NCBI GenBank assembly: GCA_041650915.1 | Contig: JBAZKE010000006.1 | Span: 8,961-72,960 of the forward strand | Reading direction: 5' to 3' | Source: Patescibacteria group bacterium | GTDB taxonomy: Bacteria > Patescibacteriota > Patescibacteriia > UBA10025 > JAHIVO01 | Length of the DNA: 64,000 bases | Notes under the pieces: generated by a model | What the model was told of the DNA's origin: nothing | The model's database searches: none | Seen by the model: only the letters and a program-made list of their open reading frames with translations | Made by a program: the position numbers and the translations under genes | In this document: positions 9,822 to 61,611 of the stretch, in pieces | Layout of the letters: every line of letters begins with the position of its first letter | Position numbering within the stretch: the stretch's first letter is position 1

Positions 9822-10024
9822 TGCCGCTCGCGAGATTCATTGTAGCGTGGTGCTGTGCGGCGGAGCTGCCCGACCGCAATGCAGTCATGAAATACTGTAC
9901 TTCCACCTTGGCTACGCTGCGTGACGTTCGGCATCATGGCCTCGCTGTAGAAGTCAGAGAAGCGATCAAGAAAGGTCGCGAGCGCTACATAAAAGATTTC
10001 ATTAAGGACCTGTCGTGCCGGTAG
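9821..10024 (+). CDS. Hypothetical small protein
   Basis: 67-aa ORF with GTG start overlapping the upstream stop. Weak support. Confidence 0.3.
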   Translation: MPLARFIVAWCCAAELPDRNAVMKYCTSTLATLRDVRHHGLAVEVREAIKKGRERYIKDFIKDLSCR

Positions 10025-10611: not shown

Positions 10612-10670
10612 TTCTTTTCTTCCACGTTAATTTATAGTAGTCCAAAACTCCTGCGAGTTGAGTTATCCCT

Positions 10671-12847: not shown

Positions 12848-12856
12848 AACATCTGC

Positions 12857-14059: not shown

Positions 14060-14083
14060 TTTGCCGAACTTCAGGAGCCCAGA

Positions 14084-15586
14084 ATGCTCAAAGAGACAAT
14101 CATTTCGAGAAATTCGCTGGGTGCAACTCAGCTCACGCATAACATTGTAGCCAATACTTATGGCAGCGCTCCGACACTTGCAACGGATGGTTTCTACATC
14201 CGCTGCGCGGCGTCTCGCAACTACGATGCCTATGAGGCATTGTTCAGTTTCGACGGTACCGCTACCATCCTGACCAAGGCCGTCGTGAGGCCGTGGTTTT
14301 GGGTGCCGGACCACGATCCCGGCGCGGCTGGCGGCACCTGGCTGGCCGGCAAGTTCATGGAGAACATTTCAACGGGCGCTGGTAGCACTGATGTATTTGC
14401 TGCGGTCAGGAGAATCAATAGCGTCCCGGTAGCGGCTACCCGCTGCTATCTCCAGGTCGTCAGTGTTGTGGGGTTCATTCCCGTTGACCTATACATGACG
14501 GTCATGGGGATTGAAGGTATTGTTGCCGAAGTCGACATGACGGATGTCTCGGTTGAATTGGACGTCGGGGACGTCTCGGTTATGGCACCGTTCACTCAGG
14601 CAACCCATACTACGCCCGTATCGTTCACGGCGGCATTCGCGACTGCAAACACGATTCTCTGTGCTTCGGCGCCGTTCGTGATCGATGAGGCTAACTGCCG
14701 GGTAGTATTTGTGTTGTACCGACACGTCGGTGACCTGTGGTCGGCCCCGTTGGTCAATGGCATTGGCGGCGTATCACTGACAGCCGCCGCCAACGTCATC
14801 ACGCTGGCCGGTACTGCTGGGGCCCCGCTGCTCGCAGGTGATGAACTGTGGGTTGGGGTGCAGCAGCGCCCAGTGTCGGGTGGTGGGGGCGGCGCAGCCG
14901 GTGGCGGCGACGCTATTTACACTTCCCCAAACGATTTCTCGGTTACGTTTTTGGCGCCTACGCAGTTGACCCTCACGGGACTGTCGTACACCCCGACGTT
15001 GGGACAATTCGTTTCGGTGTACTATGTTGACGTGGCCGGTATGGCCAAGACTCTAACGCCCGACACCAACGCGTTCGCCTGGAATTCAGGGACCGGAATT
15101 CTGACCGTCACGTCCGCTACTTTTGCGGCAACTGATTCATACCGCGTTATGGTATTCGGCCCCGACAAATCTCTGGACCTCGCCAGTAACTCAAAACGAA
15201 CAGCAGAAATTAGCCCCGCAAATCTCTACGCCACTACCGAACCCCTGGTGGACGCCACTAACGTTGGAGCCGGAACCGTATATTACCCGAGCGACACGGG
15301 TGGTGATATGTTAGGTTACGGTGGATTGTGCCTACAGATGGTTACAAGTGGAGGTGTTACGACGACCGTAGAAGTGACGAACGACACGGCCGCGGTCCCT
15401 GACTGGCTGGACATCACGTTGGCGGGCGACGATCTGTGTCTGCGGTCATGGGCTGCCAGCTATGTAGATCGATCCACCATGGTGGACTTCGACAATCTGA
15501 ACGTCCGGGCATTTCGCATCAAGTCAATAACGGCCGATGCGTCCAACGCTGTCCAGTACAACATCCGTCGCAAGGCCGTCAGCTAA
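14084..15586 (+). CDS. Hypothetical structural (tail fibre/baseplate-like) protein, Gly-rich
   Basis: 500-aa ORF with RBS GGAG. T/S/G/A-rich composition and a GGGGGAAGGG stretch. Confidence 0.55.
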   Translation: MLKETIISRNSLGATQLTHNIVANTYGSAPTLATDGFYIRCAASRNYDAYEALFSFDGTATILTKAVVRPWFWVPDHDPGAAGGTWLAGKFMENISTGAGSTDVFAAVRRINSVPVAATRCYLQVVSVVGFIPVDLYMTVMGIEGIVAEVDMTDVSVELDVGDVSVMAPFTQATHTTPVSFTAAFATANTILCASAPFVIDEANCRVVFVLYRHVGDLWSAPLVNGIGGVSLTAAANVITLAGTAGAPLLAGDELWVGVQQRPVSGGGGGAAGGGDAIYTSPNDFSVTFLAPTQLTLTGLSYTPTLGQFVSVYYVDVAGMAKTLTPDTNAFAWNSGTGILTVTSATFAATDSYRVMVFGPDKSLDLASNSKRTAEISPANLYATTEPLVDATNVGAGTVYYPSDTGGDMLGYGGLCLQMVTSGGVTTTVEVTNDTAAVPDWLDITLAGDDLCLRSWAASYVDRSTMVDFDNLNVRAFRIKSITADASNAVQYNIRRKAVS

Positions 15587-15596
15587 TAGGTGCAGC

Positions 15597-15878
15597 ATGA
15601 TTCTTTACCCGAAAAACTACGTTGAGAAGCCGTCGACCGAGAAGCCAGCGCAGGACAGCAAACCGGCTATTCTGCTCATCAAGGCCTTGGCAGATAAAGA
15701 TGCCGTGACTTACGAGGAAGCCGTCAAGGCCGTGATGGTGGCGGAGAAACAGGCAGGCCGTTATTGGACCAACGATGAGGTCTGCGAGATGGTCAAGGCC
15801 GTGGATAATGAGTGGCACGGCGACGGGAAACCAGCGGCCGTGGAAATGCTGGTCGAAGACAAAGGAAAAGTGAAATAA
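15597..15878 (+). CDS. Hypothetical protein (93 aa)
   Basis: In-frame ATG with AGGTG RBS just after the upstream stop. The track ORF 15537..15878 is trimmed to this start. Confidence 0.45.
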   Translation: MILYPKNYVEKPSTEKPAQDSKPAILLIKALADKDAVTYEEAVKAVMVAEKQAGRYWTNDEVCEMVKAVDNEWHGDGKPAAVEMLVEDKGKVK

Positions 15879-16279
15879 TGCGCCCCTGCACGTCTTTGCT
15901 ACGTAATAAAGAAGTCACGCTGGATCTCACGCAGGCCGCTGCCCCCACAACCTATGATGCCCTGACGGCCACCGGCGACGTCATGATCATGGGCATAAAC
16001 GCGTACGTCCAAACTGCTGGTGGCGGCGATCTGACGTCTGTCTCGATCCAGACTAATCAAACCACACCATTGGTACTGCTGACCGCCGGCCAAGGCGCGG
16101 TGGCCAATCTACTGGCCCAGAGCCACCCGACCTCCACCATGCAGACTTTGGTGGCGCCTTGGACGTTGCGGTCGGGCCAGAAGGTGCAGTACACCTTGAC
16201 GGCCGCAGGTGGGGCCCACACGGGCTCCATGCGACTATTCTGCTCCTATATGCCAATTAGTCCCGGAGCTACTTTGTAG
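15878..16279 (+). CDS. Hypothetical protein (133 aa)
   Basis: ATG with AAAGGAAAAG RBS. The track ORF 15812..16279 is trimmed to this start. Confidence 0.45.
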   Translation: MRPCTSLLRNKEVTLDLTQAAAPTTYDALTATGDVMIMGINAYVQTAGGGDLTSVSIQTNQTTPLVLLTAGQGAVANLLAQSHPTSTMQTLVAPWTLRSGQKVQYTLTAAGGAHTGSMRLFCSYMPISPGATL

Positions 16280-16293
16280 AGTAGAGGTGCGGC

Positions 16294-16890
16294 ATGATTG
16301 GTGCAATGTTCCCGGGTTGGGAAGATCTTCGAATCACAGCTTTTGAACCAAATAGCGGGGCCGATGCTCCGCAGTTGATTCAGTTTCCTGCTGCCACGAC
16401 CTACGCGCCTCAGGTTTGGAGATTCCAGAACGTGGGGTCGGTGAATTTCTTGAACGCCGTGTCCCAGATGAGCCATGGTGTTGACCTGACGCAACCGGCT
16501 TACCTGCATCTACATCTCAGCAACGACGCCATCATGGTGGAAGGCGCCATCATTGGGCTGTTTGTCGCGTTGAATGTTTGCACCATTGGTGGGGTCTGGG
16601 GAACCGAAGAGATCTACTGGTGCAGCTATACGGTGCCGGCCGGCGGCATCGCGGCCAAGACGCACATCAAAACACCAGATGTTCCAATTTCGGCCGCACT
16701 ACAGGCCAAGATGGGCAATAGTTCGGCCATTTTGATCAGTGTGTTTCGGGACAAAGATACTGTGGTCGCGACCCAGAACGCCGGGGCCGTGACCGAGACC
16801 CTGAATGACGAAGTCTGGTTCTTGGAATGCGACTTCCACTTCTTCAAGTACCGAGGCGGTAGCCAGAATCATGCGGCTCCGTTTGCTTAG
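16294..16890 (+). CDS. Hypothetical protein (198 aa)
   Basis: RBS AGAGGTG. Confidence 0.5.
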   Translation: MIGAMFPGWEDLRITAFEPNSGADAPQLIQFPAATTYAPQVWRFQNVGSVNFLNAVSQMSHGVDLTQPAYLHLHLSNDAIMVEGAIIGLFVALNVCTIGGVWGTEEIYWCSYTVPAGGIAAKTHIKTPDVPISAALQAKMGNSSAILISVFRDKDTVVATQNAGAVTETLNDEVWFLECDFHFFKYRGGSQNHAAPFA

Positions 16891-16948
16891 TAGTTTGTCC
16901 GCAGTGCAAATTAGACTAAATGATCAGTAGACAATATAAAGGTGACGC

Positions 16949-18181
16949 ATGTTGATAACACCTACATCGGAAAAAATGAGGGGCTTGGTCGACCTTATTG
17001 ATCTGACCGACCCCGTCGCGATAGCGCAAAGGGGCGGCACCGTCACGGGAGCGCTGCAATTTGATGCTGTGAAAGGGGCCTACCTGGATGGCGTCAACGA
17101 CTACGTCCGATATCCTGTCGGTACCCAGGTGTTCGGGGCTCCGGGTGTCTGGTCAGTAGTAATTGAGTGTACTCCGGGGTTTGAAGCCAATGACGCCGGC
17201 ATACATTATTTTATATATGGATCAGCTACATCGCGTTTGTACCACTCGGCAGGCAATCTGCTCTTCCGCATGGGGACTACATTTTATATAACTGCTGCGT
17301 ATGCGGCATATGCGGCATATTGGAAAACAAACCAACGCAACGTAATCGTGTATACGGCAATAAACGGAAGTCCAAAGCTTTACCTAAACGGCAATCTTGT
17401 TGTTACGACAAACATACAGGTAACCGCAGAAAATTTATCTTCATTGTATGTTGGATCTGACAATAGCGGATCCGGCAAGTTCCTCGGACATATCCATAGT
17501 ATCAAATTCTTCAAGGGCACCGTTGCGGCCGATCTCCTGACCGCCGGGGAGGCGGCCTCATTTTACGACCGGTCGACTTACACGTTTCGCAGTCGCGCAA
17601 TCTGCTGCCTGCCCATGGGCGCAGAACAGCACGATCCGGTCAATAATCTCGTTCGTGACACCAGTGGACGGGGCAACCACTTCACCTTGGGCGACGGCAC
17701 CGCGGCAACCAAACCGACCAAGTTGGCGACCCGGGGCTATAGTTTTGACGGTGGGGATTATCTAAAAGCAAACTACAACATCATAAATGGAACCCCGTGG
17801 ACAGCCTGTATGTTGGTGTCTATCACAGGTTCTAACTATTTGTTTGGTGCATATACTGGCGCGGCAGAAGTAAGGGTGAATAAGGCAATAGGAACGCCTG
17901 CTGTGCTTTTCACCACATTGGGTGCTGGCGACGTTTACACATACGACAACAAAATATCTACTAACGCAACCACAATAGTTAATGACCGGGCTTTGTCATT
18001 TATTACATTTAGTGACACCGACTGTGCATACTCGTCTGTAGTGAACATCATGAGTCGGTATAACAATTCGGGTCCAGCAACAGGGAACGTATATTATTTT
18101 TCACTATACCCGTTTGTTCTGACCTATCTACAACGATTCGACGAATATCAATATGCCTTGCAAAACCTGGGGAAAATCTAA
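16949..18181 (+). CDS. Hypothetical structural protein (410 aa)
   Basis: RBS AAAGGTGA. Beta-rich T/S/N/G composition. Internal AT-rich segments. Confidence 0.55.
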   Translation: MLITPTSEKMRGLVDLIDLTDPVAIAQRGGTVTGALQFDAVKGAYLDGVNDYVRYPVGTQVFGAPGVWSVVIECTPGFEANDAGIHYFIYGSATSRLYHSAGNLLFRMGTTFYITAAYAAYAAYWKTNQRNVIVYTAINGSPKLYLNGNLVVTTNIQVTAENLSSLYVGSDNSGSGKFLGHIHSIKFFKGTVAADLLTAGEAASFYDRSTYTFRSRAICCLPMGAEQHDPVNNLVRDTSGRGNHFTLGDGTAATKPTKLATRGYSFDGGDYLKANYNIINGTPWTACMLVSITGSNYLFGAYTGAAEVRVNKAIGTPAVLFTTLGAGDVYTYDNKISTNATTIVNDRALSFITFSDTDCAYSSVVNIMSRYNNSGPATGNVYYFSLYPFVLTYLQRFDEYQYALQNLGKI

Positions 18182-22643: not shown

Positions 22644-23387
22644 ATGACCAGATATTTAGTCTACCGAAATGCTGTTTATCGCATCGCTTCCATGCCGTTG
22701 CAAGTTTTGCAGTTGGGCCCTGGCCAGAAATTCGATCCTGATTTCAAGACTTCCTGCACGCCTCCTTGGCAGGTTAACCCCTTCAATTACAAGCCGCTGT
22801 GCAGCAGCGGTAATCAACAACCGCTCTGGACCTCATCATACGACTACGAGGCAAAAAGTACTGAATGGCTAAGGTACTGCGCTCGCGGCTATGAAGACGA
22901 CATTGGGGAACAGGCCGTCATTTTTGAAGTGTCACCGTCTGCACGTGTGATGCATATTTTGAACGAAGACGACTTTGAAACAGCTTTAGGTCTATATCCT
23001 GGTGAGCCTTCCAACGACATGAAACGCATGGGAATGGGCCGACCTTTAGATTGGAACGCTGTCGCGCAGGAGTACGATGGATTTCATGTAGGGCGCGAAG
23101 CAATTTCTACTTCAGAACTTCGGGAGTGGAGCGTCGAATCGACCGTATGGTTTAACCCGAAAGTCTTGACGGTAAAGCAAATAGTTGACATCCAACATTA
23201 CTGTGACGCCGCTGGACACGGTCGTAGTTTGTCCCCACAAGAGCGTAAAGACATCAAGCAACAAAAAGAACAAACAGAAGAGTCTTTCGGGGAAAAACTT
23301 GACCAGTGGCTCGAGCACAGGACTGGGCCACAACCACAGCCGCCCCATGACCAGTACAGGTTCCGTTACGAAATACCCCGGCCATAG
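22644..23387 (+). CDS. Hypothetical protein (247 aa) with N-terminal hairpin tag MTRYLVYRNAVYRI
   Basis: Tag variant at residues 3-13. Confidence 0.55.
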   Translation: MTRYLVYRNAVYRIASMPLQVLQLGPGQKFDPDFKTSCTPPWQVNPFNYKPLCSSGNQQPLWTSSYDYEAKSTEWLRYCARGYEDDIGEQAVIFEVSPSARVMHILNEDDFETALGLYPGEPSNDMKRMGMGRPLDWNAVAQEYDGFHVGREAISTSELREWSVESTVWFNPKVLTVKQIVDIQHYCDAAGHGRSLSPQERKDIKQQKEQTEESFGEKLDQWLEHRTGPQPQPPHDQYRFRYEIPRP

Positions 23388-23402: not shown

Positions 23403-23457
23403 AATGCCGACAAAACTGCAATACCGTGGTCATGTTTACCGGCAAGCCAACCCCTGA
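23403..23457 (+). CDS. Tag-only mini-ORF (MPTKLQYRGHVYRQANP), possibly a frameshifted N-terminus of the 23426..24460 gene
   Basis: AAGGAAAA RBS 7 nt upstream. Encodes only the hairpin tag, then stops. Overlaps the next ORF in the -1 frame. Confidence 0.3.
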
Positions 23458-24460
23458 ATGGTGGGGACAGGACCAAGATCATCACTACACGCAGCCCGCA
23501 GATCCCGAGACTGAAATCCCGGTGGCAGATCTGCTGCGGGAATTCGACGAGATGATCGAGATCGCGTGCCGAGACGGCACCTGGAATGTTGATCCATATC
23601 TCTTCGGCATGGCCAATGGCATGATTTTCATGCGGTCAATAGTCAGCGGCGAAGAACCTCAGTATTTGGAGGCGCCGGCCGAGTGGTCGGGCGAGTCCAG
23701 TGGGGTAGAGGCAGAATCGGATAAGCGTTCACTTGCGCGGGGTGAAACTACACGTTACGTTACCCGTGACTATCTTCGCCAATATGTAGAGTCTACCGGT
23801 GTCGATTTGGACGACATAAAGCGTCATTATGGCCTCGGACAACATTCGGCCAGTGCCCAGTACCGACGGGGTTTTGTCGACGGGCAGGATTTCGGGCATG
23901 CTATTTTAGACGACGCGGCCCAACTTGAGCATGGTACCACAGCACTACAACGTGATGTCGACCGATTAGGCTGGGACGGGGCCGTTGAGCACCAGCAAGA
24001 TTTAGGCGACGCGGCCCAGCAACGTCTGGACCCCAATGCCATCAGCAAAACCATGTGGCAAATGGGCGTGCGGGATGCCAAACTGCTCGGCCCAGGGCTT
24101 ATAACAGTCGAAGAGGCGAAAGCTAGGGCGGCCAGAAGTGTCGCCAGCACTAAACAAGAAATATTGGCAACCCTGACCTCCAAGTTTAATTTCGGCGAAC
24201 CCAACGAATTTGACACACAAATCAGCACCGAAGCGGCCTACGCGCAGGAGCAGGACGCCATGGTGGCGTGGACAGCAGTCCGGCAGTACATCGATTCCGT
24301 GCTGCGGCAGCTCCTTCCCGTCACCACGACCGAAACAGATTTCGGCATGGCCCAAACCATCCTTGGTCTCATTGAGGTGGCGTCACATGTCGGTCGTGTG
24401 CGTTGCCGATGCTCAGATCCTTGGCGACTGCATGTCGGCATCACGACGCTCGCCAAATAG
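23426..24460 (+). CDS. Hypothetical protein (344 aa)
   Basis: Long ORF. Its own ATG lacks an RBS, whereas the out-of-frame 23403 ATG has a good one. Confidence 0.5.
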   Translation: MVMFTGKPTPEWWGQDQDHHYTQPADPETEIPVADLLREFDEMIEIACRDGTWNVDPYLFGMANGMIFMRSIVSGEEPQYLEAPAEWSGESSGVEAESDKRSLARGETTRYVTRDYLRQYVESTGVDLDDIKRHYGLGQHSASAQYRRGFVDGQDFGHAILDDAAQLEHGTTALQRDVDRLGWDGAVEHQQDLGDAAQQRLDPNAISKTMWQMGVRDAKLLGPGLITVEEAKARAARSVASTKQEILATLTSKFNFGEPNEFDTQISTEAAYAQEQDAMVAWTAVRQYIDSVLRQLLPVTTTETDFGMAQTILGLIEVASHVGRVRCRCSDPWRLHVGITTLAK

Positions 24461-45166: not shown

Positions 45167-45928
45167 ATGTATTTGATTTTTTCTTTGCTCCTGCTCATTC
45201 AGCAGGACACGCCAGTGACGGTTTCGGCAGGAGCCCGCGGGTTTGTTCCAAGCCTGGTGGCTTCCTCGCGTCCTCCCAGTAAGGCCGACATCGTCAAATC
45301 CATTGAAGCTCTCAAAGCGAAAGGGGTTCCAGTTTCTCCCGAAAAAGTAAGCAAATATGCGGACGCAATTCTAACCGCGTCGCGCCAGCACAGCATCGAT
45401 CCATATTTGCTCGTGGCCATCGCCCGCGTAGAAAGTAATTTTACGGCAGCAGTGCGTAAAGATATCCGCTGCTCTTTGCCTCGTCAAGGTTTCTGTTCCC
45501 AAGACTGTGGCGTTACCCAGCAAAACTTTTCCGGTGCACCGAAGTGGGTTAAATTTCGGTGTGCTCAAGTGCAGAAAGATTATAAAGAATCGTTCATGCT
45601 TGCGGCCGAGGAACTCGCCAAGCACACGGAATGGTGTCGAGAGAAAATTCACCTCGACAGAGTGCCCGAACGCTGCATACTTAATCGGTACAACGGCGGG
45701 CCTATGTACCGAAAGGAAGAACAGTGCAAGCGTCTGTACAGCCAATGCTCGGCATTGCCCGAGGACCGAAAGCAAAAGTGCCTGTTTGGTCGGCGGCGCT
45801 GCATGATTATCGCAACGTACTGGACACGAGTTCTGTGCTTCCACCAAGCAGCGCGCACCGCAACTACACCTACGCGCGACTGCCGGTGGTGCTGGAGCGT
45901 CGACTCCATCGATAAACATTTTGAGTAA
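45167..45928 (+). CDS. Lytic transglycosylase (SLT domain) with N-terminal membrane or signal segment
   Basis: SIDPYLLVAIARVESNF (SLT catalytic region, E in ESN). Hydrophobic N-terminus MYLIFSLLLLIQQ. RBS GAGAGG. Confidence 0.7.
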   Translation: MYLIFSLLLLIQQDTPVTVSAGARGFVPSLVASSRPPSKADIVKSIEALKAKGVPVSPEKVSKYADAILTASRQHSIDPYLLVAIARVESNFTAAVRKDIRCSLPRQGFCSQDCGVTQQNFSGAPKWVKFRCAQVQKDYKESFMLAAEELAKHTEWCREKIHLDRVPERCILNRYNGGPMYRKEEQCKRLYSQCSALPEDRKQKCLFGRRRCMIIATYWTRVLCFHQAARTATTPTRDCRWCWSVDSIDKHFE

Positions 45929-46144: not shown

Positions 46145-46162
46145 CACGTTATCTTTTAGTAG
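46145..46162 (+). promoter_or_regulatory. Conserved CACGTTA...TTTAGTAG promoter-like element (copy 4)
   Basis: CACGTTATCTTTTAGTAG upstream of the 46183 gene. A partial copy lies at about 45943. Confidence 0.35.
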
Positions 46163-46182
46163 TTCTTACGAAAGGTATAATC

Positions 46183-46737
46183 ATGTCCGTACCTAAATTT
46201 ATCCGCGTCGCCGGTCAATTATATCGTTTGGCTGAGCCACCGCCGCAGTTCACACAGGACAAAGACGAGCTTGGGAAGCTCGAGGCAGATCTCGAGATGG
46301 CAGAATCTATTGGCGCTACCGAAAACGCCAAGCAGATTAGGCAAAAAATTGAACAGCTAAAAACAGCTTTCGCACCCAGAGATAAATATTATGCTGACAT
46401 GCCCGGCGCGAAGTACGTAATTGCACTTTCTCCCGAAGAAGAAGAGATTCTATTCCAGATCCATGAGGGACAGGGCGACGCCGTCTATGCAGTCGCGAGC
46501 CGCAGTCATAGCGCTGGGTTAACTTGGGTCACTGAGGACGAACTCTCGACCGTAGTGTCTCGTCTTGCCTGGCTGCTCAGTGACGCGACCATCACAGCGG
46601 AGATGTCGGAACAAGAGCAAGAGACTGCCGCCTCGCTTCTCTATGAACTAGAAAACCTATCGTCCGGCAGCACTGGAATTGAGTATCCTCCTGGTGTCAT
46701 CCGGGAATTTGATTTGCAGACCCCACCCAGCGCTTAG
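46183..46737 (+). CDS. Hypothetical protein (184 aa) with N-terminal hairpin tag MSVPKFIRVAGQLYRL
   Basis: RBS AAAGGT. Tag at residues 5-15. Confidence 0.6.
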   Translation: MSVPKFIRVAGQLYRLAEPPPQFTQDKDELGKLEADLEMAESIGATENAKQIRQKIEQLKTAFAPRDKYYADMPGAKYVIALSPEEEEILFQIHEGQGDAVYAVASRSHSAGLTWVTEDELSTVVSRLAWLLSDATITAEMSEQEQETAASLLYELENLSSGSTGIEYPPGVIREFDLQTPPSA

Positions 46738-46800
46738 TTTCATCTGTTTCCTGCTTTCTACCTTATATCTAGGTAGATTTGCGTCTACCGGAGAACCTCC

Positions 46801-48519
46801 ATGCCTGAAATTATTTATCGCGGCCAGCGCTATGTACTCCACACGGCAGCCGAAACCTATGCCCCGCCTGCCCCGCCGGCCAATTGGGAAACAAATAAGC
46901 AAGAATATATCACCAAAGTCATAGCCGATTTGGAGGCTTTGGGCGAACGCGTTTATACTTTGGGTATTGAAAGCGACGTTATCGCGGAGCAACCCGGAGA
47001 TGTCGACGCAGAAGTAACGCAAACCAAAGTAAAACAAGTCCGGCACGAGCTTAAACTCCAAGAAGCCGCCGGTAATGCCGAAGCTGTGGCTGCTCTCAAG
47101 GCGCAACTCGACGCACTGGGAATTAAGAAATCTACCACGGGTTTGGCATTGGATAACTTGGCCAAGGTAATTGACAATACAATCGCGGCAGTTGAACTCG
47201 GAGAGTATCTAATCAAAAACCCCACGGTGCCTGCAAAACGTGCGGTAAAAATTCCTATTACTGAAGTCGTACCAGAGCTTACTCGTATCGTTGATCAGTG
47301 GGAAAAGTTTGCGCTATCGAGTCGGCCGGCGTCCGATGTGCCCGATCAGCAGCGCAAAAAAGAAGAAGTCCTGGGCTTCCCTAAATTCGTGAAGGTACAG
47401 CTTGACTTCATCAATAAACACATTGTAGAAGCTACTGAATTAGTCAACCGTGCTGCAGTGACCGAAGGCCAGGATCCCGAGGAAAGCGCACGTATCCAAG
47501 CTGCGCAAGCCGCACTTCCTAGTTTTATGTACCGGCTCAAGGTTGTGAATGAATCCATCGCCAAAGGCAAATATGTAATTTCCAACCGTGTCGACCTGCT
47601 GGCTGAGATGGAAGATGCGCGGAAAGCCGCAGAAACTGCTGGCGACGCAGCACAGGCTGAAGAACTGCAGAAGCGTATCGATTGGGTGCAAGGTACTCAA
47701 ACAACCGATAAGGACCTGAAAGATCGATACATTAAAGACATTGTGAAAGAGTTGTTTACAGAGTTTAAAGCGCACTGGCTGGTGGCCAAGGCGCAAAAGG
47801 CTAAAGAAAAAGCCGAAGCTGACGCGAAGGCTAAGGCAGATAAGCCCGAAAAAGAAAAGAAACCGAAGGAACCCAAACCCGACAATCTCATGGAGGTAGT
47901 AAAAGAACTCCTGGCTACGCTGGAGGATATCAAAAATAAACAGCCTATGTTCTTGCAAACCGCAAAAGCGCGCGAGGGTTTCGATAAACTCGTGCAGGAC
48001 ACCATCGCGGTTGGAAAGGCTGTAGACGCTGGCGCCGCTTCTGTGACGCTGTCGTCTGGGGAATACCCAATCAAAGAGGCCGTGAAGCTGGTGCAAGACG
48101 GTATGCGACAGTACCGCAGCATGATGAAGCGAGAGTTTGAGCCCGGGGCCAGAGCGCAAGAGAAGCAAGTCGGTATGGGCAAGAGTCTGGAAGATCTAGA
48201 TAAAAAGATTGCGGAGATTGATCAGGCCATTTCTGCGGTTCGCAGCCAGCAGAGTCGTGCGTCTGCAGGTAGCCTGGAGTTGCTAGAACAAATCAAGCGA
48301 AAACCGGATCGTGCAAGCAAACTGCCTTTGATGGCCCGGCGAGATAAAATAGAGCACGAAGTAGCAGAGCTTACTAAGCAAATCGACACCCTGCGCAAAG
48401 AGCGTAGTTCTGTGAGTCTAGCGCGTGACAATCTGCTTAAAAGCGTACGGCCAGGCCCACAGGCCACACCCGAAGTTACCAAACCAACGGGTCCCATTTA
48501 CCAGACACCGGAGTTCTAA
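46801..48519 (+). CDS. Coiled-coil K/E-rich protein (572 aa) with N-terminal hairpin tag MPEIIYRGQRYVL
   Basis: RBS GGAGAA. Long heptad-rich stretches and a KAKEKAEADAKAKADKPEKEKKPKEPKP segment. Confidence 0.65.
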   Translation: MPEIIYRGQRYVLHTAAETYAPPAPPANWETNKQEYITKVIADLEALGERVYTLGIESDVIAEQPGDVDAEVTQTKVKQVRHELKLQEAAGNAEAVAALKAQLDALGIKKSTTGLALDNLAKVIDNTIAAVELGEYLIKNPTVPAKRAVKIPITEVVPELTRIVDQWEKFALSSRPASDVPDQQRKKEEVLGFPKFVKVQLDFINKHIVEATELVNRAAVTEGQDPEESARIQAAQAALPSFMYRLKVVNESIAKGKYVISNRVDLLAEMEDARKAAETAGDAAQAEELQKRIDWVQGTQTTDKDLKDRYIKDIVKELFTEFKAHWLVAKAQKAKEKAEADAKAKADKPEKEKKPKEPKPDNLMEVVKELLATLEDIKNKQPMFLQTAKAREGFDKLVQDTIAVGKAVDAGAASVTLSSGEYPIKEAVKLVQDGMRQYRSMMKREFEPGARAQEKQVGMGKSLEDLDKKIAEIDQAISAVRSQQSRASAGSLELLEQIKRKPDRASKLPLMARRDKIEHEVAELTKQIDTLRKERSSVSLARDNLLKSVRPGPQATPEVTKPTGPIYQTPEF

Positions 48520-48522
48520 ACT

Positions 48523-49233
48523 ATGGCCAACGCAGTTAAATTCAACGGTGCGCTTTATGTAATTGCAGGCAAACCTGCGGCCGGAACTCCACGTAACACC
48601 ACTTGGACGAAAAAACAGTTCAAGCACTACACATCACCAGTTAAAATGCCGGGTGTGCGCACCGACGTCATCCAAGGAGACGAAGCTGCTGTACAAACAG
48701 AAATTAATCAGCTTAGGCGGGACATCGCAAAAGCTAAAGCTAGTTATGACAGCTTACTAGATCAGCGCAATCAGCAGTACGATAAACGAACTATTTCTCT
48801 CGAGGCGACGCGCTCGCCGGAGCGTAATCGGCTGATCCGGGAATCAGAGCAAAAGATACTCGAACTAGATGCAAAACTAGACCGAATGGAAAAAGGCATC
48901 GAGCGCCTGATTGAAACACTAAACGAAAAACTAAATGCTCAGGTTTCCGAGACACCAAGCCCAGCAGATCCAGGAGGTCTCGTGGTCGAATATGACCCCA
49001 TCAAGGTGCGCAAGCAGCAAGAGCTGCAGCGTGATTTGGCACAACTGCAGTCACACAAAGAAAAGCTATTAGCTGTGCAGCAAAAGTTCCTGCGGGATAA
49101 GTCTCAGCCGATGAGCGAAACTGCGGATAAACTCATCAAAAAAGATCTGCTCGACACCGACGACATGATCGCACAAAAGCAGCACATGCTCAGGGCTCTG
49201 TCGGCGCCTGCAGACCCAATGCTCAAGGATTAA
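48523..49233 (+). CDS. Coiled-coil protein (236 aa) with degenerate N-terminal tag MANAVKFNGALYVI
   Basis: RBS GGAG. Tag is weaker (no R after the Y). Confidence 0.55.
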   Translation: MANAVKFNGALYVIAGKPAAGTPRNTTWTKKQFKHYTSPVKMPGVRTDVIQGDEAAVQTEINQLRRDIAKAKASYDSLLDQRNQQYDKRTISLEATRSPERNRLIRESEQKILELDAKLDRMEKGIERLIETLNEKLNAQVSETPSPADPGGLVVEYDPIKVRKQQELQRDLAQLQSHKEKLLAVQQKFLRDKSQPMSETADKLIKKDLLDTDDMIAQKQHMLRALSAPADPMLKD

Positions 49234-49235
49234 TC

Positions 49236-49973
49236 ATGACGCCTAAATATATTCGTGTAGCTGGTAAACTATATCGTGCCTGCCCCTGTACTGAAGTTCC
49301 TGCTGCGGAGCATGCAGATGTAGTGCGCGAAGAACTCGAGATGCAGGGCTTTTCCGCGGTGCCATGCCAGGAACCCAAGAAAGTGTGTGTAGAGACTCCG
49401 CCAGCCCAGCCACAGATTTCGGCTCCACAACGCATTGAAACTACACAACGCTCAGCGCCGCAGTTCATTCGAGTACAAGGGCAAGTTTATAAAAAGGCGG
49501 CGGCAAATCTTCCTGCTGTTGCTGCTGGAACGCTCAAAGCGCTGAATCGCGTCAGAATGCAAATTACTGCAATTCTGGGCGAAGCCGATCGCGGGGACGA
49601 AGACCGCGCGTCGGACACCGTCTGTATTTCCAATGTTCCAGGTGAGTTTCAGGTGCTGTCGGCCGATGCGCTGGGTGAGCGCGCACGTGAGGCGCTGGAA
49701 CTACTGTACAATTCTATCGCGCTGTGGGAGCGCAGCGCTACCGTCGCGTTGGCGGAGAATGAGATCATGCAGCACGCGTACGTGCTGCTCAATGACGTGC
49801 ACGGCGCAGTGTCTGAGGCCGTTGAATCCGGCATTAATGCGCAGCCTGGATTTTTCTGTGTAGAGCGCGAAAAGTTCTTCGGTCTGGTATCGGATATCTC
49901 TGCGTGCATGCAAGCCTTCACGAAGCTAGAGCGGATGTTGACCCAGAAATACAGCGTAGCCTCCGTCTCTTAG
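49236..49973 (+). CDS. Hypothetical protein (245 aa) with two hairpin tags (N-terminal KYIRVAGKLYR; internal QFIRVQGQVYKK at 49461-49496)
   Basis: RBS AAGGAT. Two tag copies. Confidence 0.6.
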   Translation: MTPKYIRVAGKLYRACPCTEVPAAEHADVVREELEMQGFSAVPCQEPKKVCVETPPAQPQISAPQRIETTQRSAPQFIRVQGQVYKKAAANLPAVAAGTLKALNRVRMQITAILGEADRGDEDRASDTVCISNVPGEFQVLSADALGERAREALELLYNSIALWERSATVALAENEIMQHAYVLLNDVHGAVSEAVESGINAQPGFFCVEREKFFGLVSDISACMQAFTKLERMLTQKYSVASVS

Positions 49974-49974
49974 C

Positions 49975-50002
49975 TTGCATTCCTGCCAGTTTCTGCTATA
50001 GT
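49975..50002 (+). promoter_or_regulatory. Sigma70-like promoter P6 (TTGCAT-16-TATAGT) driving a leaderless ATG
   Basis: The ATG at 50009 lies 6 nt after the -10. Confidence 0.45.
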
Positions 50003-50008
50003 GTTGAC

Positions 50009-50593
50009 ATGTCACAGCGCCTCCAATTCCGTGGGCACAACTACCGCCTGTACACTCCGAAAAGCCAACGCCGTGAATTTCGCATGGCGGTTGCGGGTCT
50101 ATGGCGCGACGTCACGACAGTAATTCGGTATCTCGCAGAAAAAGGAATTGATCCAGTAGTTGTCGGCGGCCTCGCCGTGCAACACCACGGCGTAGAGCGT
50201 CTGACCGAAGATATCGATATCTTGATCTCCAGAGCTGCATACACGAAGCTCGTTGAGGAAGGCAAGATTAAGTTCGGGCAGCTGAAAATCATCCCCGGCA
50301 CGGAAATCGATGTGCTGACCGAGGGAAAGGACAACAACCCCGATCCTGAATTCATTCGAGCCGGAGATTCTAATTTCCCGACGTTTGCCGGTTTGATCTA
50401 CCTGAAGCTGAAAGCGAACCGACTTAAAGACCGAGGCGATGTCGCGGAGCTACTTAAAGCCCACGAGTTCAATATCGAGGAACAGCAGGAAATCCTAACG
50501 TTCCTGCCAGAAGAGCTAAAAATTAGATTTTTAGCCATTTGGGACGAAGCCGGGCAAGAGCACGACAAACGCAAGCAAATGGTGGAAGAATAA
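50009..50593 (+). CDS. Nucleotidyltransferase-fold (AbiEii-like) protein (194 aa) with N-terminal tag MSQRLQFRGHNYRLY
   Basis: Leaderless ATG. VVGGLAVQHHGVERLTEDIDILI matches the GG...G..R.T.DiD minimal NTase signature. Confidence 0.6.
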   Translation: MSQRLQFRGHNYRLYTPKSQRREFRMAVAGLWRDVTTVIRYLAEKGIDPVVVGGLAVQHHGVERLTEDIDILISRAAYTKLVEEGKIKFGQLKIIPGTEIDVLTEGKDNNPDPEFIRAGDSNFPTFAGLIYLKLKANRLKDRGDVAELLKAHEFNIEEQQEILTFLPEELKIRFLAIWDEAGQEHDKRKQMVEE

Positions 50594-51252
50594 TGCAACG
50601 TGTGTTTTCAACGCTGAACGATCTCATCGCGCAAGGCGTTATTACCGATTATGCTCTTGGTGGCTCCGTTGCGTTCATGTTTTACTGCCAGCCGTTCCTG
50701 ACCAACGACACCGATTTCTTTGTACAAATGCCGGGAAGCGGACTGCTAGTCTCGCTCTCGCCAATCTACGCTTACGCGGCAGAACATAATTTTCCTCTGG
50801 ACCATGAGCACATCGTTGTCGATGACGAGCCGGTGCAAATCATTCCAGCGCCCTCACCACTCTACGACGAAGCAATCGCTACAGCGCAGCAGCGGACAAT
50901 CGAAGGACAGAATGTAAAGGTCATGCTGCCGGAATATCTCGTCTGCACGGCACTGAATGCCGGCCGAATGAAAGATTTCGCAAAAATCGAAAAACTGCTC
51001 GAGGAAGCAGAAGTCGATCTGAGTAAACTAAAGGAACTCATTACCCGGTTTCAGCTATCTGCGCAGTGGAAGCGCTACCTTGTCGCCATTGGAGTTACTG
51101 ATCCAGCTTTTCTGCATTTGGCGGAAACAAAAGCAACCTGGCGCCGTGCACAAGCCGATAAACGGATGGAAGACAAACTACAAGAAATAAAAAAGCTGCG
51201 CACCAGAGTCAGCGCAATCCGCTATAGAAACGCACTGTACAGACCTGTTTAA
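50593..51252 (+). CDS. Second nucleotidyltransferase-fold-like protein (219 aa) with C-terminal tag IRYRNALYRPV
   Basis: ATG overlaps the upstream stop, with GGAAGA RBS. ALGGSVAFMFYCQPFLTNDTDFFV. The track's overlapping start at 50539 was rejected. Confidence 0.55.
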   Translation: MQRVFSTLNDLIAQGVITDYALGGSVAFMFYCQPFLTNDTDFFVQMPGSGLLVSLSPIYAYAAEHNFPLDHEHIVVDDEPVQIIPAPSPLYDEAIATAQQRTIEGQNVKVMLPEYLVCTALNAGRMKDFAKIEKLLEEAEVDLSKLKELITRFQLSAQWKRYLVAIGVTDPAFLHLAETKATWRRAQADKRMEDKLQEIKKLRTRVSAIRYRNALYRPV

Positions 51253-54325: not shown

Positions 54326-55225
54326 ATGACTACACCAAATAAAATCCGAGTTCGCGGTGACGTGTACGAACTCGTGAAAAACGTAGCGCCGCTGGCGCAA
54401 ATGGACCTCGCCGACGAGATGTCCCAAGATATGCGGTTGGCCCAAAATGAGTTCGTGACGACGGTAGAGAACGTCATCGATGCCGTGGATGAAATCGATC
54501 CGCGCGGCCTTGCATCTCCCATCGCCGGAATGGCCGCGCCAATCGGCAAGATATTCACCAAAGCGCAAGGAATCCTCAAACTATTTCAACACGACAAAAT
54601 CAGCGTGGAACTCTACAAATTGGAGTACGGTCGTTGGTACTTGGTACACGAGCTGGTGCGTGTGGCCTATCACTTTGCGCGCCAAGATTACTACAAGCGA
54701 GACAACAAACTAGATATTGACACCGTGGTCAGCGCACTTGACTACGACAAAACACTAAAAGAACTGCGGCAAGACCACGAGCGCTATTACGCGGCAGCCG
54801 CATCTAAAATACTGCTGCGCTTCATTAAGGCCGGCAGTGAGGATGACACCCCTGTCGTACAGGATTCGAAAACAAGGCGTGAGCTAGACCTCAGTGCCGT
54901 GACGATACAGCGAATTAAGGACACCATTAAGCACGTGCTGCAGGCTGCACTTGACCTCGGAACCGCCACGGCCGAAACCCTGGACAAATACGACAGCGCT
55001 GCTCGGCATCTCGCGGCAGCTACAAATCTGGCTAAAGAAATCGCCAAGGCGCCGCAGATGTTGATGAAACCTGAACCCCTGACTCCGCCAGAGCACAAAG
55101 AGCGCATCGATACAGACGCTACAATAAGTAAATCCGTTGAGGACGAGCCCACCGCCATTGATCCGCGCGTAAAGCACGGCACCTACCTTCACTACGCCGG
55201 AAAAACCTACCGTCCACTCACGTAG
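54326..55225 (+). CDS. Hypothetical protein (299 aa) with hairpin tag at both termini (N: NKIRVRGDVYEL; C: YLHYAGKTYRPLT)
   Basis: RBS CAGGAGA. Tag-like peptide at residues 6-16 and in the last 13 residues. Confidence 0.6.
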   Translation: MTTPNKIRVRGDVYELVKNVAPLAQMDLADEMSQDMRLAQNEFVTTVENVIDAVDEIDPRGLASPIAGMAAPIGKIFTKAQGILKLFQHDKISVELYKLEYGRWYLVHELVRVAYHFARQDYYKRDNKLDIDTVVSALDYDKTLKELRQDHERYYAAAASKILLRFIKAGSEDDTPVVQDSKTRRELDLSAVTIQRIKDTIKHVLQAALDLGTATAETLDKYDSAARHLAAATNLAKEIAKAPQMLMKPEPLTPPEHKERIDTDATISKSVEDEPTAIDPRVKHGTYLHYAGKTYRPLT

Positions 55226-59148: not shown

Positions 59149-60906
59149 TTGAGAGTACCTGCCGTTTATGTTCTTAATCAACGCGGCGAGCCATTAATGC
59201 CCACAACGCCAAGGAAAGCACGAATGCTTCTCCGGGAAGGAAAGGCCAAGGTAAAGACTAGAACTCCGTTTGTAATTCAATTGCTTGTTCCAACCGGAGA
59301 AACCAAACGGCCCATCGTTTTGGGAGTAGACGCTGGATACCTCCACGTTGGCCTGTCGGCCGTAACGGAAAATAAAGAAGTATACGCCGCGGAAATCACG
59401 CTTAGGTCTGATATTGTAGCCTTAATTTCGACTCGTAAAATGTATCGACAAACACGAAGAAGTAGAAAAACCTGGTACAGACAGCCGAGATGGTTGAATC
59501 GAGTAAAAAGCAAACCCAAAGGCTGGCTAGCTCCGTCAATTCAGCACAAGCTCAATAGCCATGTAAAACTGGTCGAGCGCGTTAAACGAATTCTTCCCAT
59601 TACCTCAGTAATAGTGGAAATAGCTGCTTTTGACATTCAGAAAATCAAAAATCCAGATATACAGGGAGTAGAGTACCAAGAAGGTGTGCAAAAAGGTTTT
59701 ACAAACGTGCGAGAATATGTGCTGTACAGAGATGGACATAAATGCCAAGCGTGCAAAGGAAAATCCAAAGACAAAATTTTGAAAGTAGTGTTGAACGCCC
59801 ACCACATAGAGTCTAGAAAAACAGGCGGAAATCGACCTGATAATCTCGTTACACTCTGTGCTGAGTGTCATAAGCTTTACCATAACGGTACCGTAAACAT
59901 TAAAACTAAACCCAGCAAAAGTTTCAAAGCCGAAGCATTCATGACGATGGTGTGGCGACGATTGGTTGAACTATTAGGTGCCGCAATCCGATATGGCTAC
60001 GAAACCAAACAAGCTAGAGCAGACGCTGGACTTAACAAAAGTCATGTTAATGACGCTTTTGTCGTCGCGGGCGGATGCTACCAGAACAGAACAGTTCCAT
60101 TTTTAGTAAAACAAGTTAGGAAACAGAACCGAAAACTTTACAATGGACCACACTCCGGTCGGCGCAGCACCGCTGCTCGATTTGTTCGTGGGTTCCAACG
60201 ATACGATAAAGTCCTGTACAAAGGAGTGGAATGTTTTGTGTTTGGAAGAAGAACCAACGGTTATTTCGACGTCCGAGATCTATACGGTGCTAGAATACAT
60301 GACGGCGCAAAAGCCAAGGACTGTGTTTTGCTGGAAACAGCAAGCACTTTATTAACCTGTACCCTAAGAGGTGGCACTCCCCTGCCTAAAGGCAGAGGTC
60401 TCCATGCCGAAGCCCAAATGAAAATCAGAACTGGTTTTGTCAGCAATTCGAGTAGTTCTAGCTTTGTCGTGCAAATCCGGCAGAGTCCGTGGGAAAAATC
60501 CGAGCCCAAATTGTTGCTTTCGCCGGAGCAACTCGCATGGCTAGAGTCTCAAGGATTTCGGTACTGTGCGCACACGTATCCCTCGCGAGTTGAGGAAACT
60601 GGGATTCTGGAAATGTACCCTGGCGCCGAAACGCCTGAAGCAGCAGAAAATATGTGGCTGTCGGTGATTTGTAACCAAGACGAAGTCATCGACGGTTTGG
60701 TCCGGCAGGGCATTCCATTTTGTGCGTCATGCCACTACGGACACGAGACTGTGGTTTGGCGCGCTGGCGATAAGCGCGTTTATGCATTGCCAAATTTAGG
60801 GCACGAATACGAAACATACCAAGAGGAGAAACTTTTCAAAGCTAAAGTCAAAGTAGCATCACAAACCGTAGCAAGCATCAAGAAAAACGGGTGTAATCTC
60901 GTTTAG
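59149..60906 (+). CDS. iscB: IscB-like RNA-guided nuclease (PLMP, RuvC-I, Arg-rich bridge, RuvC-II, HNH, RuvC-III, TID), fused in-frame to a C-terminal MKIRTGFVSNSSSSSF-family module
   Basis: VYVLNQRGEPLMPTTPRKARMLLREGKAKVKTRTPFVIQLL. LGVDAGYLHVGLS (catalytic D at about 59329). RRSRKTWYRQPRW. VIVEIAAFDIQ. HNH: CQAC...HHIESRK...N...LCAECHKLYH. SHVNDAFVVAGG. TID: FQRYDKVLYKGVECFVFGRRTNGYFDVRDLYG. TTG start at 59149 with GAGGGAAGGG RBS. The track ORF is open from 58984. Confidence 0.8.
   Translation: MRVPAVYVLNQRGEPLMPTTPRKARMLLREGKAKVKTRTPFVIQLLVPTGETKRPIVLGVDAGYLHVGLSAVTENKEVYAAEITLRSDIVALISTRKMYRQTRRSRKTWYRQPRWLNRVKSKPKGWLAPSIQHKLNSHVKLVERVKRILPITSVIVEIAAFDIQKIKNPDIQGVEYQEGVQKGFTNVREYVLYRDGHKCQACKGKSKDKILKVVLNAHHIESRKTGGNRPDNLVTLCAECHKLYHNGTVNIKTKPSKSFKAEAFMTMVWRRLVELLGAAIRYGYETKQARADAGLNKSHVNDAFVVAGGCYQNRTVPFLVKQVRKQNRKLYNGPHSGRRSTAARFVRGFQRYDKVLYKGVECFVFGRRTNGYFDVRDLYGARIHDGAKAKDCVLLETASTLLTCTLRGGTPLPKGRGLHAEAQMKIRTGFVSNSSSSSFVVQIRQSPWEKSEPKLLLSPEQLAWLESQGFRYCAHTYPSRVEETGILEMYPGAETPEAAENMWLSVICNQDEVIDGLVRQGIPFCASCHYGHETVVWRAGDKRVYALPNLGHEYETYQEEKLFKAKVKVASQTVASIKKNGCNLV
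60418..60906 (+). other. C-terminal extension of the IscB ORF, equal to paralog A of the MKIRTGFVSNSSSSSF family (163 aa), with internal ATG
   Basis: Begins MKIRTGFVSNSSSSSF, like the two genes downstream. In the IscB frame with no intervening stop. Could instead be a separate or coupled gene. Confidence 0.5.
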
Positions 60907-60914
60907 GAGGAAAC

Positions 60915-61283
60915 ATGAAGATCAGAACCGGGTTCGTAAGTAATTCCAGCAGCTCCAGCTTTTTGATCTGGGGCATCACAGTAGACACGTCGGAGTTTCA
61001 GAAAGAAATTCCCGTAAGAGATGAAGACGGGGAAGACTGCGAGGAAGAGAGCCCGTACGATGTCGCGGAGCGGCTTGAGTCCGAATACGGTGACATCGTG
61101 CGGTTTGCTTATGAAAACGACATCCTATATCTCGGTCGGTGCCCTTCAACTTGCGGCCTAGACGAGACCATGCGGAAGTTCCAGCAGCGCGTGGAAACCG
61201 AGGTGAAAGCCATGGCTGAGAAAGAAGGCGTAGCTCTGGGAGACGTGGAATTCGGGTGGCTCGAGGAAGCCTGGCACGACTGA
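60915..61283 (+). CDS. Small acidic protein, MKIRTGFVSNSSSSSF family paralog B (122 aa)
   Basis: Strong RBS TAGGAGGAAAC. The N-terminal 20 aa are conserved with A and C. Homologous to C over its full length (CxxxC.DETMxxFxxRVET...FGW...AW). Confidence 0.65.
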   Translation: MKIRTGFVSNSSSSSFLIWGITVDTSEFQKEIPVRDEDGEDCEEESPYDVAERLESEYGDIVRFAYENDILYLGRCPSTCGLDETMRKFQQRVETEVKAMAEKEGVALGDVEFGWLEEAWHD

Positions 61284-61293
61284 GGAGGACAAA

Positions 61294-61611
61294 ATGAAAA
61301 TCAGAACCGGTTTTGTAAGTAACTCGAGTAGTTCAAGCTTTTTGATTTGGGGCACCTTTGTCGAGGTAGACAAATTCGGCGAGGAATTCGATCGCGATGA
61401 AGTCGAAGGCGACATCGTGCACTCCGCCGGGCCCGACGACGACTATTACGTTTACGTCGGACGTGTGCCTAAAGAGTGTCGTGATGACGAAACCATGGGG
61501 CAATTCAAAGCCCGCGTCGAGACCGACGCCAGAGCGTTCCTGGCTGAGCAAAAAGTCGACGCGACAAATCTGAAATTTGGATGGCATTCGGCCGCGTGGT
61601 ACGACGGATAG
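61294..61611 (+). CDS. Small acidic protein, MKIRTGFVSNSSSSSF family paralog C (105 aa)
   Basis: Strong RBS TGAGGAGGACAAA. Paralog of B. Confidence 0.65.
   Translation: MKIRTGFVSNSSSSSFLIWGTFVEVDKFGEEFDRDEVEGDIVHSAGPDDDYYVYVGRVPKECRDDETMGQFKARVETDARAFLAEQKVDATNLKFGWHSAAWYDG

Follow-up and report, generated by a model that had tools for sequence, protein, structure and literature searches.

A short terminal hairpin peptide on unrelated proteins of an uncultured phage clade, a putative address for the procapsid

In bacteriophage T4, a capsid-targeting sequence (CTS) peptide directs proteins into the core of the prohead (PMC3012670, PMC5694885). Here we describe a peptide of 13 to 16 residues, hereafter the tag, which is shared by the products of six consecutive genes (A to F, positions 46183 to 51252) in a stretch of 64,000 nucleotides. 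This stretch, hereafter the window, comprises bases 8999 to 72998 of a 78-kb metagenomic contig (L001) that was deposited under a Patescibacteria metagenome-assembled genome (MAG). The contig represents a phage genome, and its binning into this MAG was probably an error. Positions are those of the window unless L001 or another locus is named. The tag seems to be previously undescribed, as judged from the families, structure entries and literature found. By analogy with known targeting peptides, we propose that it may be a modular address for the procapsid, with a packaging function, a reading that in our judgment could equally well prove right or wrong.

The CTS of T4 has the sequence MKTYQEFIAE. 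As on the T4 proteins IPI-III and Alt, the tag is a short peptide on unrelated and highly diverse proteins encoded by clustered genes. An ADP-ribosyltransferase is among the bearers in both systems, and a gene for a head maturation protease is present. Unlike the CTS, the tag is predicted to form a β-hairpin, has no similarity to the T4 sequence, and also occurs at the C terminus (about 12 cases), internally (one case), in tandem and on scaffold-like proteins. An [LI]-x-E-like site follows only a minority of the tags; Glu stands at +7 in about 9 of 61 copies.

The cargo-loading peptides of encapsulins are extended motifs of the Gly/Ser/Leu type. Like the tag, they are short, located at the N or C terminus, joined by a flexible linker and found on unrelated cargo enzymes. 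A shell protein of the HK97 fold, the major capsid protein (MCP; 4446 to 5561), is encoded alongside the tag and is its presumed receptor. The consensus and the predicted conformation of the tag differ from those of the encapsulin peptides, however, and the shell in question is a DNA-packaging phage capsid with portal, terminase and protease. The tag seems to resemble the CTS and the encapsulin targeting peptide in its working and is a member of neither group: its sequence is unrelated, it is not confined to the N terminus, and it occurs in tandem copies. T4 offers the nearest precedent for the proposed role, and encapsulin peptides are the nearest parallel in mechanism, being terminal peptides that bind a shell of the HK97 fold.

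Two further systems were compared. In phage 80α and the island SaPI1, different proteins share one terminal capsid-binding motif. The tag may be comparable to such coat-binding motifs of scaffolding proteins (P22 gp8, 80α gp46 and SaPI1 CpmB) in that it terminates a helical protein whose gene is close to those of the protease and the MCP. In contrast to the tag, those motifs are helical (a helix-turn-helix or a helix), exclusively C-terminal and not present on dozens of enzymes. The MuF-fused and polyvalent effectors have the same repertoire (ART-PolyVal, GNAT, NUDIX and nucleotidyltransferase [NTase] domains) encoded beside the portal gene. Here, separate genes with a tag of approximately 15 residues are found instead of a large MuF or portal-associated domain, and none of the family scans made gave a match to the MuF domain. 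The enzyme types among the tagged proteins, again ART-PolyVal, GNAT, NUDIX and NTase, match known packaged or injected phage effectors.

The tag and the six-gene cluster

The tag is basic and aromatic and has the consensus P-x-x-[IL]-[KR]-[YFV]-x-G-x-x-Y-[RKV]-x-A. A profile hidden Markov model (HMM) built from 61 copies, referred to as the full HMM, has the consensus (T/S)-A-P-x-x-[IL]-[KR]-Y-[RKQ]-G-[HQA]-[LVI]-Y-[RVK]-[LAR]-A. Lys or Arg is conserved at -3, -1 and +4, as are two Tyr positions (-2 and +3). Example peptides are PKFIRVAGKLYRKAE and MLYRGHLYRLAG. An independent HMM was built from the tags of other phages only; its maximum score in controls was 6.3 bits.

To assess significance, all six-frame open reading frames (ORFs) were taken from the window and 85 related loci, 2.5 million residues altogether, and searched with the tag HMM. 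At a threshold of at least 10 bits, 109 hits were obtained, compared with 3 in reversed-sequence controls. All hits except one (108 of 109) had the same orientation as the portal gene. Most were N-terminal (95), about 12 were C-terminal, and a single one, the second copy in D, was internal.

The initial annotation had placed the tag on all six genes of the cluster, at the N terminus of five and at the C terminus of the last. All six ORFs are present with the ends given there, on the + strand, and the N termini of A to E and the C terminus of F share the core h-x-[YFV]-x-G-x-x-Y. The copies of the cluster scored between 11 and 22 bits with the full HMM. The initial observation is right in essence. 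The independent HMM recovered the copies of A, B, D (both copies) and E above the control maximum; those of C and F are degenerate and were accepted on position and pattern only.

Protein A (46183 to 46737, 184 amino acids [aa]; N terminus MSVPKFIRVAGQLYRLA) carries the tag at 46192 to 46233 (PKFIRVAGQLYRLA; 21.6 bits with the full and 17.8 bits with the independent HMM), followed by a Pro-rich linker. In protein B (46801 to 48519, 572 aa; MPEIIYRGQRYVLH), the tag at 46804 to 46842 (PEIIYRGQRYVLH; 14.6 and 13.7 bits) precedes a Pro/Ala linker and a charged helical body. Protein C (48523 to 49233, 236 aa; MANAVKFNGALYVIA) has its copy at 48529 to 48567 (NAVKFNGALYVIA; 11.0 bits with the full HMM, below noise with the independent one) and likewise a charged helical body. 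Protein D (49236 to 49973, 245 aa; MTPKYIRVAGKLYRAC) has an N-terminal tag at 49242 to 49283 (PKYIRVAGKLYRAC; 10.3 bits with the independent HMM), a 58-residue spacer, and, as originally described, a second, internal copy in front of the body (49458 to 49499, residues 75 to 88; PQFIRVQGQVYKKA; 17.3 bits with the independent HMM). With the full HMM, the two D tags scored 19.3 and 18.3 bits. In protein E (50009 to 50593, 194 aa; MSQRLQFRGHNYRLY), the tag at 50015 to 50053 (QRLQFRGHNYRLY; 16.4 and 8.6 bits) is followed by an NTase domain. Protein F (50593 to 51252, 219 aa) is a DUF2204-like NTase with its copy at the C terminus (51208 to 51249; VSAIRYRNALYRPV*; 14.5 bits with the full HMM, below noise with the independent one). 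In the F tag, as in that of the gene at 22644, Asn replaces the turn Gly. A run of six tagged genes is unlikely by chance (permutation p ~3e-4, with 12 tagged among approximately 73 genes).

The peptide IRVAGKLYR is encoded three times, each time with differing synonymous codons. Across 14 tags of the window, identity was 31% at third codon positions and 56% at codon positions 1 and 2. This shows that conservation is at the level of the peptide and not of the DNA; a DNA-level repeat was ruled out by the same codon analysis, in which the synonymous sites had diverged while the peptide was kept. A replisome motif of the sliding-clamp or SSB type was ruled out as no replication protein is tagged, and a Sec, Tat or lipoprotein signal because the tag lacks hydrophobic character and is also found at C termini. 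A likeness to the start of DUF1653, or a superficial one to the first hairpin of Sso7d-type DNA binders, was considered and rejected, as no family match backs it. There was no match to the tag in Pfam, PHROGs, NCBIfam or the PDB, including a comparison of the tag profile with PDB sequences, and we found no paper that describes it. In AlphaFold2 (AF2) models of E and of the small tagged protein g1086 (described below), the tags are β-hairpins outside the folded domain. The linkers between tag and body are flexible and rich in Pro, Ala and Glu.

The genes of the cluster are separated by 63, 3, 2, 35 and -1 nt, in line with the tight packing noted originally. Of the good ribosome-binding sites also mentioned there, Shine-Dalgarno-like sequences (GGAG or AAGGA) were found upstream of A, B, C, D and F; none was found upstream of the E start. 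A CACGTTA-type element at the beginning of the cluster, likewise noted before, is located at 46145 to 46165 (+ strand; CACGTTA-N7-GTAG), 38 nt upstream of A. The more general form CACGTTA-N7-KTA (K, G or T) is present at six sites in the window (3478, 10623, 24589, 25843, 32105 and 46145). All six are on the + strand, intergenic and 36 to 164 nt upstream of a gene start, suggesting that the element is probably a phage-specific promoter. The sites precede the cluster, capsid-gene operons including that of the MCP, and nonstructural genes. Because of the tight gaps and the promoter-like element upstream of A, the cluster looks like one transcription unit, which is likely to start at the 46145 element.

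Beyond the tag, the six proteins show no relation to one another, with one exception, a tag-spacer-tag module: that of D is paralogous to g1086 (E = 2e-11), and so, less clearly, are the first 64 residues of A. No match to A was found in Pfam, PHROGs or NCBIfam, and for A to D together these databases gave nothing except coiled-coil noise (B and C). Three coiled-coil proteins had been proposed in the cluster. Charged, heptad-like helical stretches with subthreshold matches to coiled-coil families are present in B (residues 257 to 342 and 449 to 550, approximately) and in C (approximately residues 44 to 142), and no third such protein was evident. Even for B and C, the assignment is soft, because a crude heptad score could not tell them from control proteins. 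We found no support for the scaffold or cytoskeleton role that had been suggested for the helical proteins.

No match to the region was obtained by Megablast in 50,697 phage records, no relatives of B or D were found in IMG/VR, and a search of D against 5.8 billion proteins returned only D itself. The body of D (residues 86 to 238) is a homologue of the C-terminal half of a 288- to 295-aa protein that is encoded, without a tag, in the head module of two related loci (L004, 20448 to 21314; L006, 14914 to 15801). The N-terminal half of this protein corresponds to L001:5146. Since the two halves match L001:5146 and the body of D, the head-module protein is split into two genes here (L001 5146 to 5535 and window 49236 to 49973), which are approximately 53 kb apart and have each acquired the tag. 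F is 44% identical to the product of the gene immediately downstream of the portal gene in locus L033.

When 1.84 billion representatives were searched exhaustively with E, 250 homologues were obtained. Among the closest, four are tagged (P0077, P0079, P0083 and P0085); P0076, P0078, P0081 and P0082, which are also in the top ten, and the rest of the 150 matches listed are not. The tag is thus an add-on to existing folds, since only some close homologues of E carry it. The AF2 model of E (predicted template modelling score [pTM] 0.85; predicted local distance difference test [pLDDT] above 90 from residue 18) shows the tag as a detached hairpin with pLDDT below 50. The best Foldseek match was the tRNA-modifying toxin MenT1 (Rv0078A; E = 5e-5, TM 0.50 to 0.56), and residues G53, G54, D68 and D70 of the NTase motif GG...D-x-D are conserved. 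In Pfam, DUF2204 was borderline (21.3 bits, cutoff 20.3) and AbiEii remained below its cutoff (14.5 bits, cutoff 22.5). E and F thus share with the MenT/AbiEii NTase toxins the fold, the GG...D-x-D motif and the borderline relation to DUF2204. They differ from these toxins in an identity of approximately 20%, in the subthreshold AbiEii score of E and in the lack of a recognizable antitoxin arrangement: the neighbor of E is F, another NTase and not a known antitoxin.

Tagged genes in related phages

The portal protein of the contig has 74 homologues in a collection of 5.8 billion proteins, all of them metagenomic. We compared the loci around these homologues and 79 IMG/VR relatives. The tag was present in approximately 24 loci, namely those with a portal at least ~40% identical to that of the contig, and additionally L054 at 31%. 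It is thus conserved throughout a clade of phages whose portals are 31 to 67% identical. In these relatives, the tagged genes are located directly downstream of the portal gene, between portal and MCP, where they are interleaved with the genes for the protease, virion structural protein and MCP.

The tag is modular. After its removal, 84 nonredundant tagged proteins fell into 51 BLAST clusters. The bodies include a GNAT acetyltransferase, a NUDIX hydrolase, the two NTases E and F, and several conserved families with no assigned function. An ART-PolyVal ADP-ribosyltransferase was also tagged (34 bits, above the Pfam cutoff), as was a weak PARP-like protein. In several relatives, a helical, scaffold-like family of approximately 210 aa has the tag at its C terminus (e.g., L012:13441 and L015:12920).

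In locus L054, 17 consecutive small genes (9812 to 17245; products of 90 to 170 aa) start with the tag (e.g., MSTPQQIKYQGQIYVLAAE) and are otherwise mutually dissimilar. This hypervariable array may be likened to the internal-protein loci of T-even phages. In the 152-kb relative L087, protein P0085 (10001 to 12094) consists of a tag, a CCA-adding enzyme (PolyA_pol and HD domains), an internal tag and an E-like NTase. It is adjoined by a tagged AAA_33 kinase, and an NYN RNase is encoded nearby (also 9459, 4316). This suggests a tagged toolkit for RNA repair or RNA modification.

Two annotated relatives, Rctr197k and Erwinia phage Y3, have no tag near the portal gene. More distant portal relatives without the hairpin tag have other N-terminal peptides, again shared by unrelated ORFs downstream of the portal gene. 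One of these is of the MKIKISLSS type (MK[IL][KR][IV][AS]LS[SA]) and is found on six ORFs in L062 (13315 to 18909) and on three in L063 (13970 to 18200); another, of the MNLSNLKIGQ type (MNLSNLK[IVL]GQ), is found on four ORFs in L059 (6076 to 8994). They look like lineage-specific dialects of an address peptide. Since distant relatives carry such shared peptides of their own, the architecture of an address peptide would be general, with the peptide varying with the head lineage.

Other features of the contig

The tag is found on approximately eight further genes of the contig, which gives 14 to 15 tagged genes in all. L001:5146, directly downstream of the portal gene, is tagged. L001:8202, directly downstream of the protease gene, encodes a helical protein rich in Ala, Gln and Lys that ends in a pair of tags in which Phe replaces Tyr; no family match was found for it. 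The head-module gene g1086 (1086 to 1358, + strand) encodes 90 aa with a tag at each end. Its AF2 model comprises a hairpin, two helices, a disordered spacer and a second hairpin (hairpins at residues 5 to 15 and 75 to 85, pLDDT ~72), consistent with a minimal bivalent tag protein. Gene 2124 has a weak copy.

Further downstream, a gene in the structural region (11429 to 12847, + strand, 472 aa) has the N-terminal tag MLYRGHLYRLAG (17.8 bits; 16.1 bits with the independent HMM). The gene at 22644 to 23387 (+ strand, 247 aa) starts with the variant MTRYLVYRNAVYRIAS, the Asn-for-Gly form mentioned above (10.6 bits). At 23404 to 24460 (+ strand), a tag-only ORF of 17 codons (23404 to 23457; MPTKLQYRGHVYRQANP*, 26.4 bits) overlaps a 344-aa ORF (23426 to 24460) that is one frame off. 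We read this region as a frameshifted tagged gene because the homologue of the 344-aa ORF in L004 (12861) carries the tag in frame; it would be due either to a frameshifting error of the assembly, close to a run of CCCC, or to a genuine, possibly programmed, frameshift. Finally, the product of gene 54326 to 55225 (+ strand, 299 aa) has a tag at each end (N-terminal PNKIRVRGDVYELV, C-terminal YLHYAGKTYRPLT*). The tag is absent from the terminase, portal and MCP of the contig and from its proteins of replication, nucleotide metabolism and lysis.

The contig encodes a large terminase, a portal, a head maturation protease, virion structural proteins and an MCP. The portal (L001:2870-5146) is 26 to 28% identical to its closest annotated counterparts, the portals of jumbo phages such as phiRSL1 and Erwinia Y3; the clade has no cultured member. 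Several portal homologues of the relatives contain inteins (P0008, P0018, P0042, P0043, P0058, P0061 and P0072). The protease (L001:7381-8193) was assigned by PHROG (E = 9e-47), and its family had no match among PDB sequences. The MCP (+ strand) is of the HK97 type (PDB 6wkk_A, "Gp27 major capsid protein," E = 4e-19; PHROG major head protein, E = 5e-36) and is the candidate receptor of the tag. Directly upstream of its gene are tandem paralogues (2581 to 3384 and 3611 to 4405; 59% identical) of the virion structural protein family PHROG 16710. The possibility that the 267-aa virion protein family is an MCP paralogue was ruled out by hhalign.

The gene directly upstream of the cluster (45167 to 45928) is untagged. 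Its product, with a weak match to SLT lytic transglycosylases and a hydrophobic N terminus, is a candidate endolysin or peptidoglycan hydrolase of the virion. Homing endonucleases are abundant (HNH at 12857, 43269, 51336 and 58984; GIY-YIG at 27483), and a ligase and ThyX are also encoded. Three ORFs or ORF parts (60421 to 60906, 60915 to 61283 and 61294 to 61611) start with MKIRTGFVSNSSSSSF, and the two small ones are paralogous. Since the long ORF annotated with the RRXRR-HNH endonuclease holds the first copy, it may represent two genes. The ends of the contig do not overlap.

What the tag may do

We favor a role of the tag as a procapsid address because it is a short basic and aromatic hairpin on a flexible linker at either terminus, because its bodies form an open-ended set that is concentrated in the head-assembly module, and because it is present on scaffold-like proteins and on enzymes of the types found among injected phage effectors. 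The tag would dock its bearer in the assembling procapsid, either at the inner face of the HK97-type coat or in the scaffolding core. The tagged proteins would thereby be encapsidated and later delivered into the host along with the DNA, and the head protease might remove the tag. Proteins with two tags could act as bivalent staples or scaffolds. Supporting observations are that homologues of the D body and of F are located in the head module or beside the portal gene of relatives, that the promoter-like element is shared by the cluster and the MCP operons, and, as an unplanned result, that distant portal relatives have shared peptides of their own.

For the cluster itself, the initial annotation had offered two roles, a machinery that the tag addresses or a set of cargo proteins. 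The second fits the evidence: only the tag is shared, more than 50 unrelated bodies are encoded mostly in the head-assembly module of relatives, and the D body and F have head-module or portal-side homologues. The first is without support, since a receptor of the tag should be conserved and nothing in the cluster is conserved across the tag-bearing phages. A to F would thus be one operon of cargo proteins and not a tag-reading machinery. The cargo would include two helical proteins resembling ejection proteins (B and C), a relocated piece of a protein of the head module (D) and two MenT-like NTase effectors (E and F).

Several observations weigh against a procapsid address. No receptor of the tag was identified. 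The cluster is approximately 41 kb from the MCP gene, outside the head module and beside SLT, HNH and ThyX genes, and the promoter-like element is also located upstream of nonstructural genes. The tags of C and F stayed below the 6.3-bit control maximum of the independent HMM. The confidence of the predicted hairpin is modest in g1086 (pLDDT ~72) and low in E (below 50). The unsplit homologue of D and L001:5146 in L004 and L006 carries no tag, and the F homologue beside the L033 portal has no clear one. Lastly, two bearers of the tag in L087, the CCA-adding enzyme and the AAA_33 kinase, belong to RNA-repair enzymes that are usually cytoplasmic.

The last point and the position of the cluster outside the head module are expected if the tag instead docks its bearers to a hub, a phage or host factor other than the capsid (for example the ribosome, RNA polymerase, a chaperone or a compartment), at which accessory enzymes would be gathered in the infected cell. 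A short terminal motif on a flexible linker is typical of hub-binding peptides, and RNA-directed and other enzymes are tagged (the CCA-adding enzyme, the AAA_33 kinase, MenT-like NTases, NUDIX and GNAT). Such a hub would, however, leave unexplained why tagged genes are concentrated between portal and MCP in approximately 24 phages and why scaffold-like helical proteins are tagged; moreover, the tag sequence shifts with the lineage of the head genes, and the enzymes of replication, lysis and nucleotide metabolism in this phage are untagged. We consider it unlikely, if worth keeping in mind. Many tagged enzymes act on nucleic acids, and this, together with the conserved Lys/Arg and Tyr positions and the superficial likeness to the first hairpin of Sso7d-type proteins, would agree with a nucleic acid-binding hairpin that tethers its bearers to the phage DNA, for copackaging or coejection, or to RNA or tRNA substrates. 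But a single hairpin of eight residues is a weak and unspecific binder, strict terminal placement is not predicted by such a role, and no nucleic acid-binding module in Pfam or the PDB matched the tag; we regard this role as very unlikely.

The proteins with two tags (g1086, D, g54326 and L001:8202) and the tag on the scaffold-like protein are also what would be seen if the hairpins paired with each other, so that the bearers coassemble into a multivalent network, such as an inner body, core or condensate, without a receptor on the coat and are cross-linked by the two-tag proteins. There is some overlap here with the T4 model, according to which the CTS directs proteins to the scaffolding core (PMC5694885). 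In the AF2 model of g1086 (pTM 0.36), however, the two hairpins are not confidently packed together, and homotypic pairing alone would leave localization unexplained. Self-association without a coat receptor is therefore quite improbable in our view. Lastly, the tag might have no function and be a remnant of paralogy or recombination, or a chance or compositional match. The slightly longer N-terminal module shared by A, D and g1086 and the weak copies in C and F could be read in this way. This is hardly credible in the face of 109 hits against 3 in controls, terminal placement on one strand, synonymous sites that are saturated while the peptide is kept, and 51 unrelated body clusters in phages with portals of only 31 to 67% identity.

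If the tag is indeed a packaging signal, the proteins that an uncultured phage carries into its host could be read from sequence alone. Here, these would include an ADP-ribosyltransferase, GNAT and NUDIX proteins, tRNA-type NTases and RNA-repair enzymes. The capsid-targeting concept of T4 would then reach a large metagenomic clade with huge phages among its members, and a functional link between phage capsids and the cargo loading of encapsulins would emerge. The tag would also provide a compact handle of 15 residues for packaging foreign proteins in phage capsids. A wider proposal, possible but on balance doubtful, is that the tailed phages of a large and mostly uncultured portal superfamily use a transplantable, sequence-defined address code for capsid loading. 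In the present clade, one β-hairpin, used at either terminus and in tandem, would dock scaffold-like proteins as well as an open-ended range of enzymes and effectors on the inner face of the HK97 coat. A DNA-packaging virus would thus contain a cargo-loading system of the encapsulin kind, and sister lineages would use other dialects. Such lineage-specific dialects suggest that the tag and its receptor coevolve.

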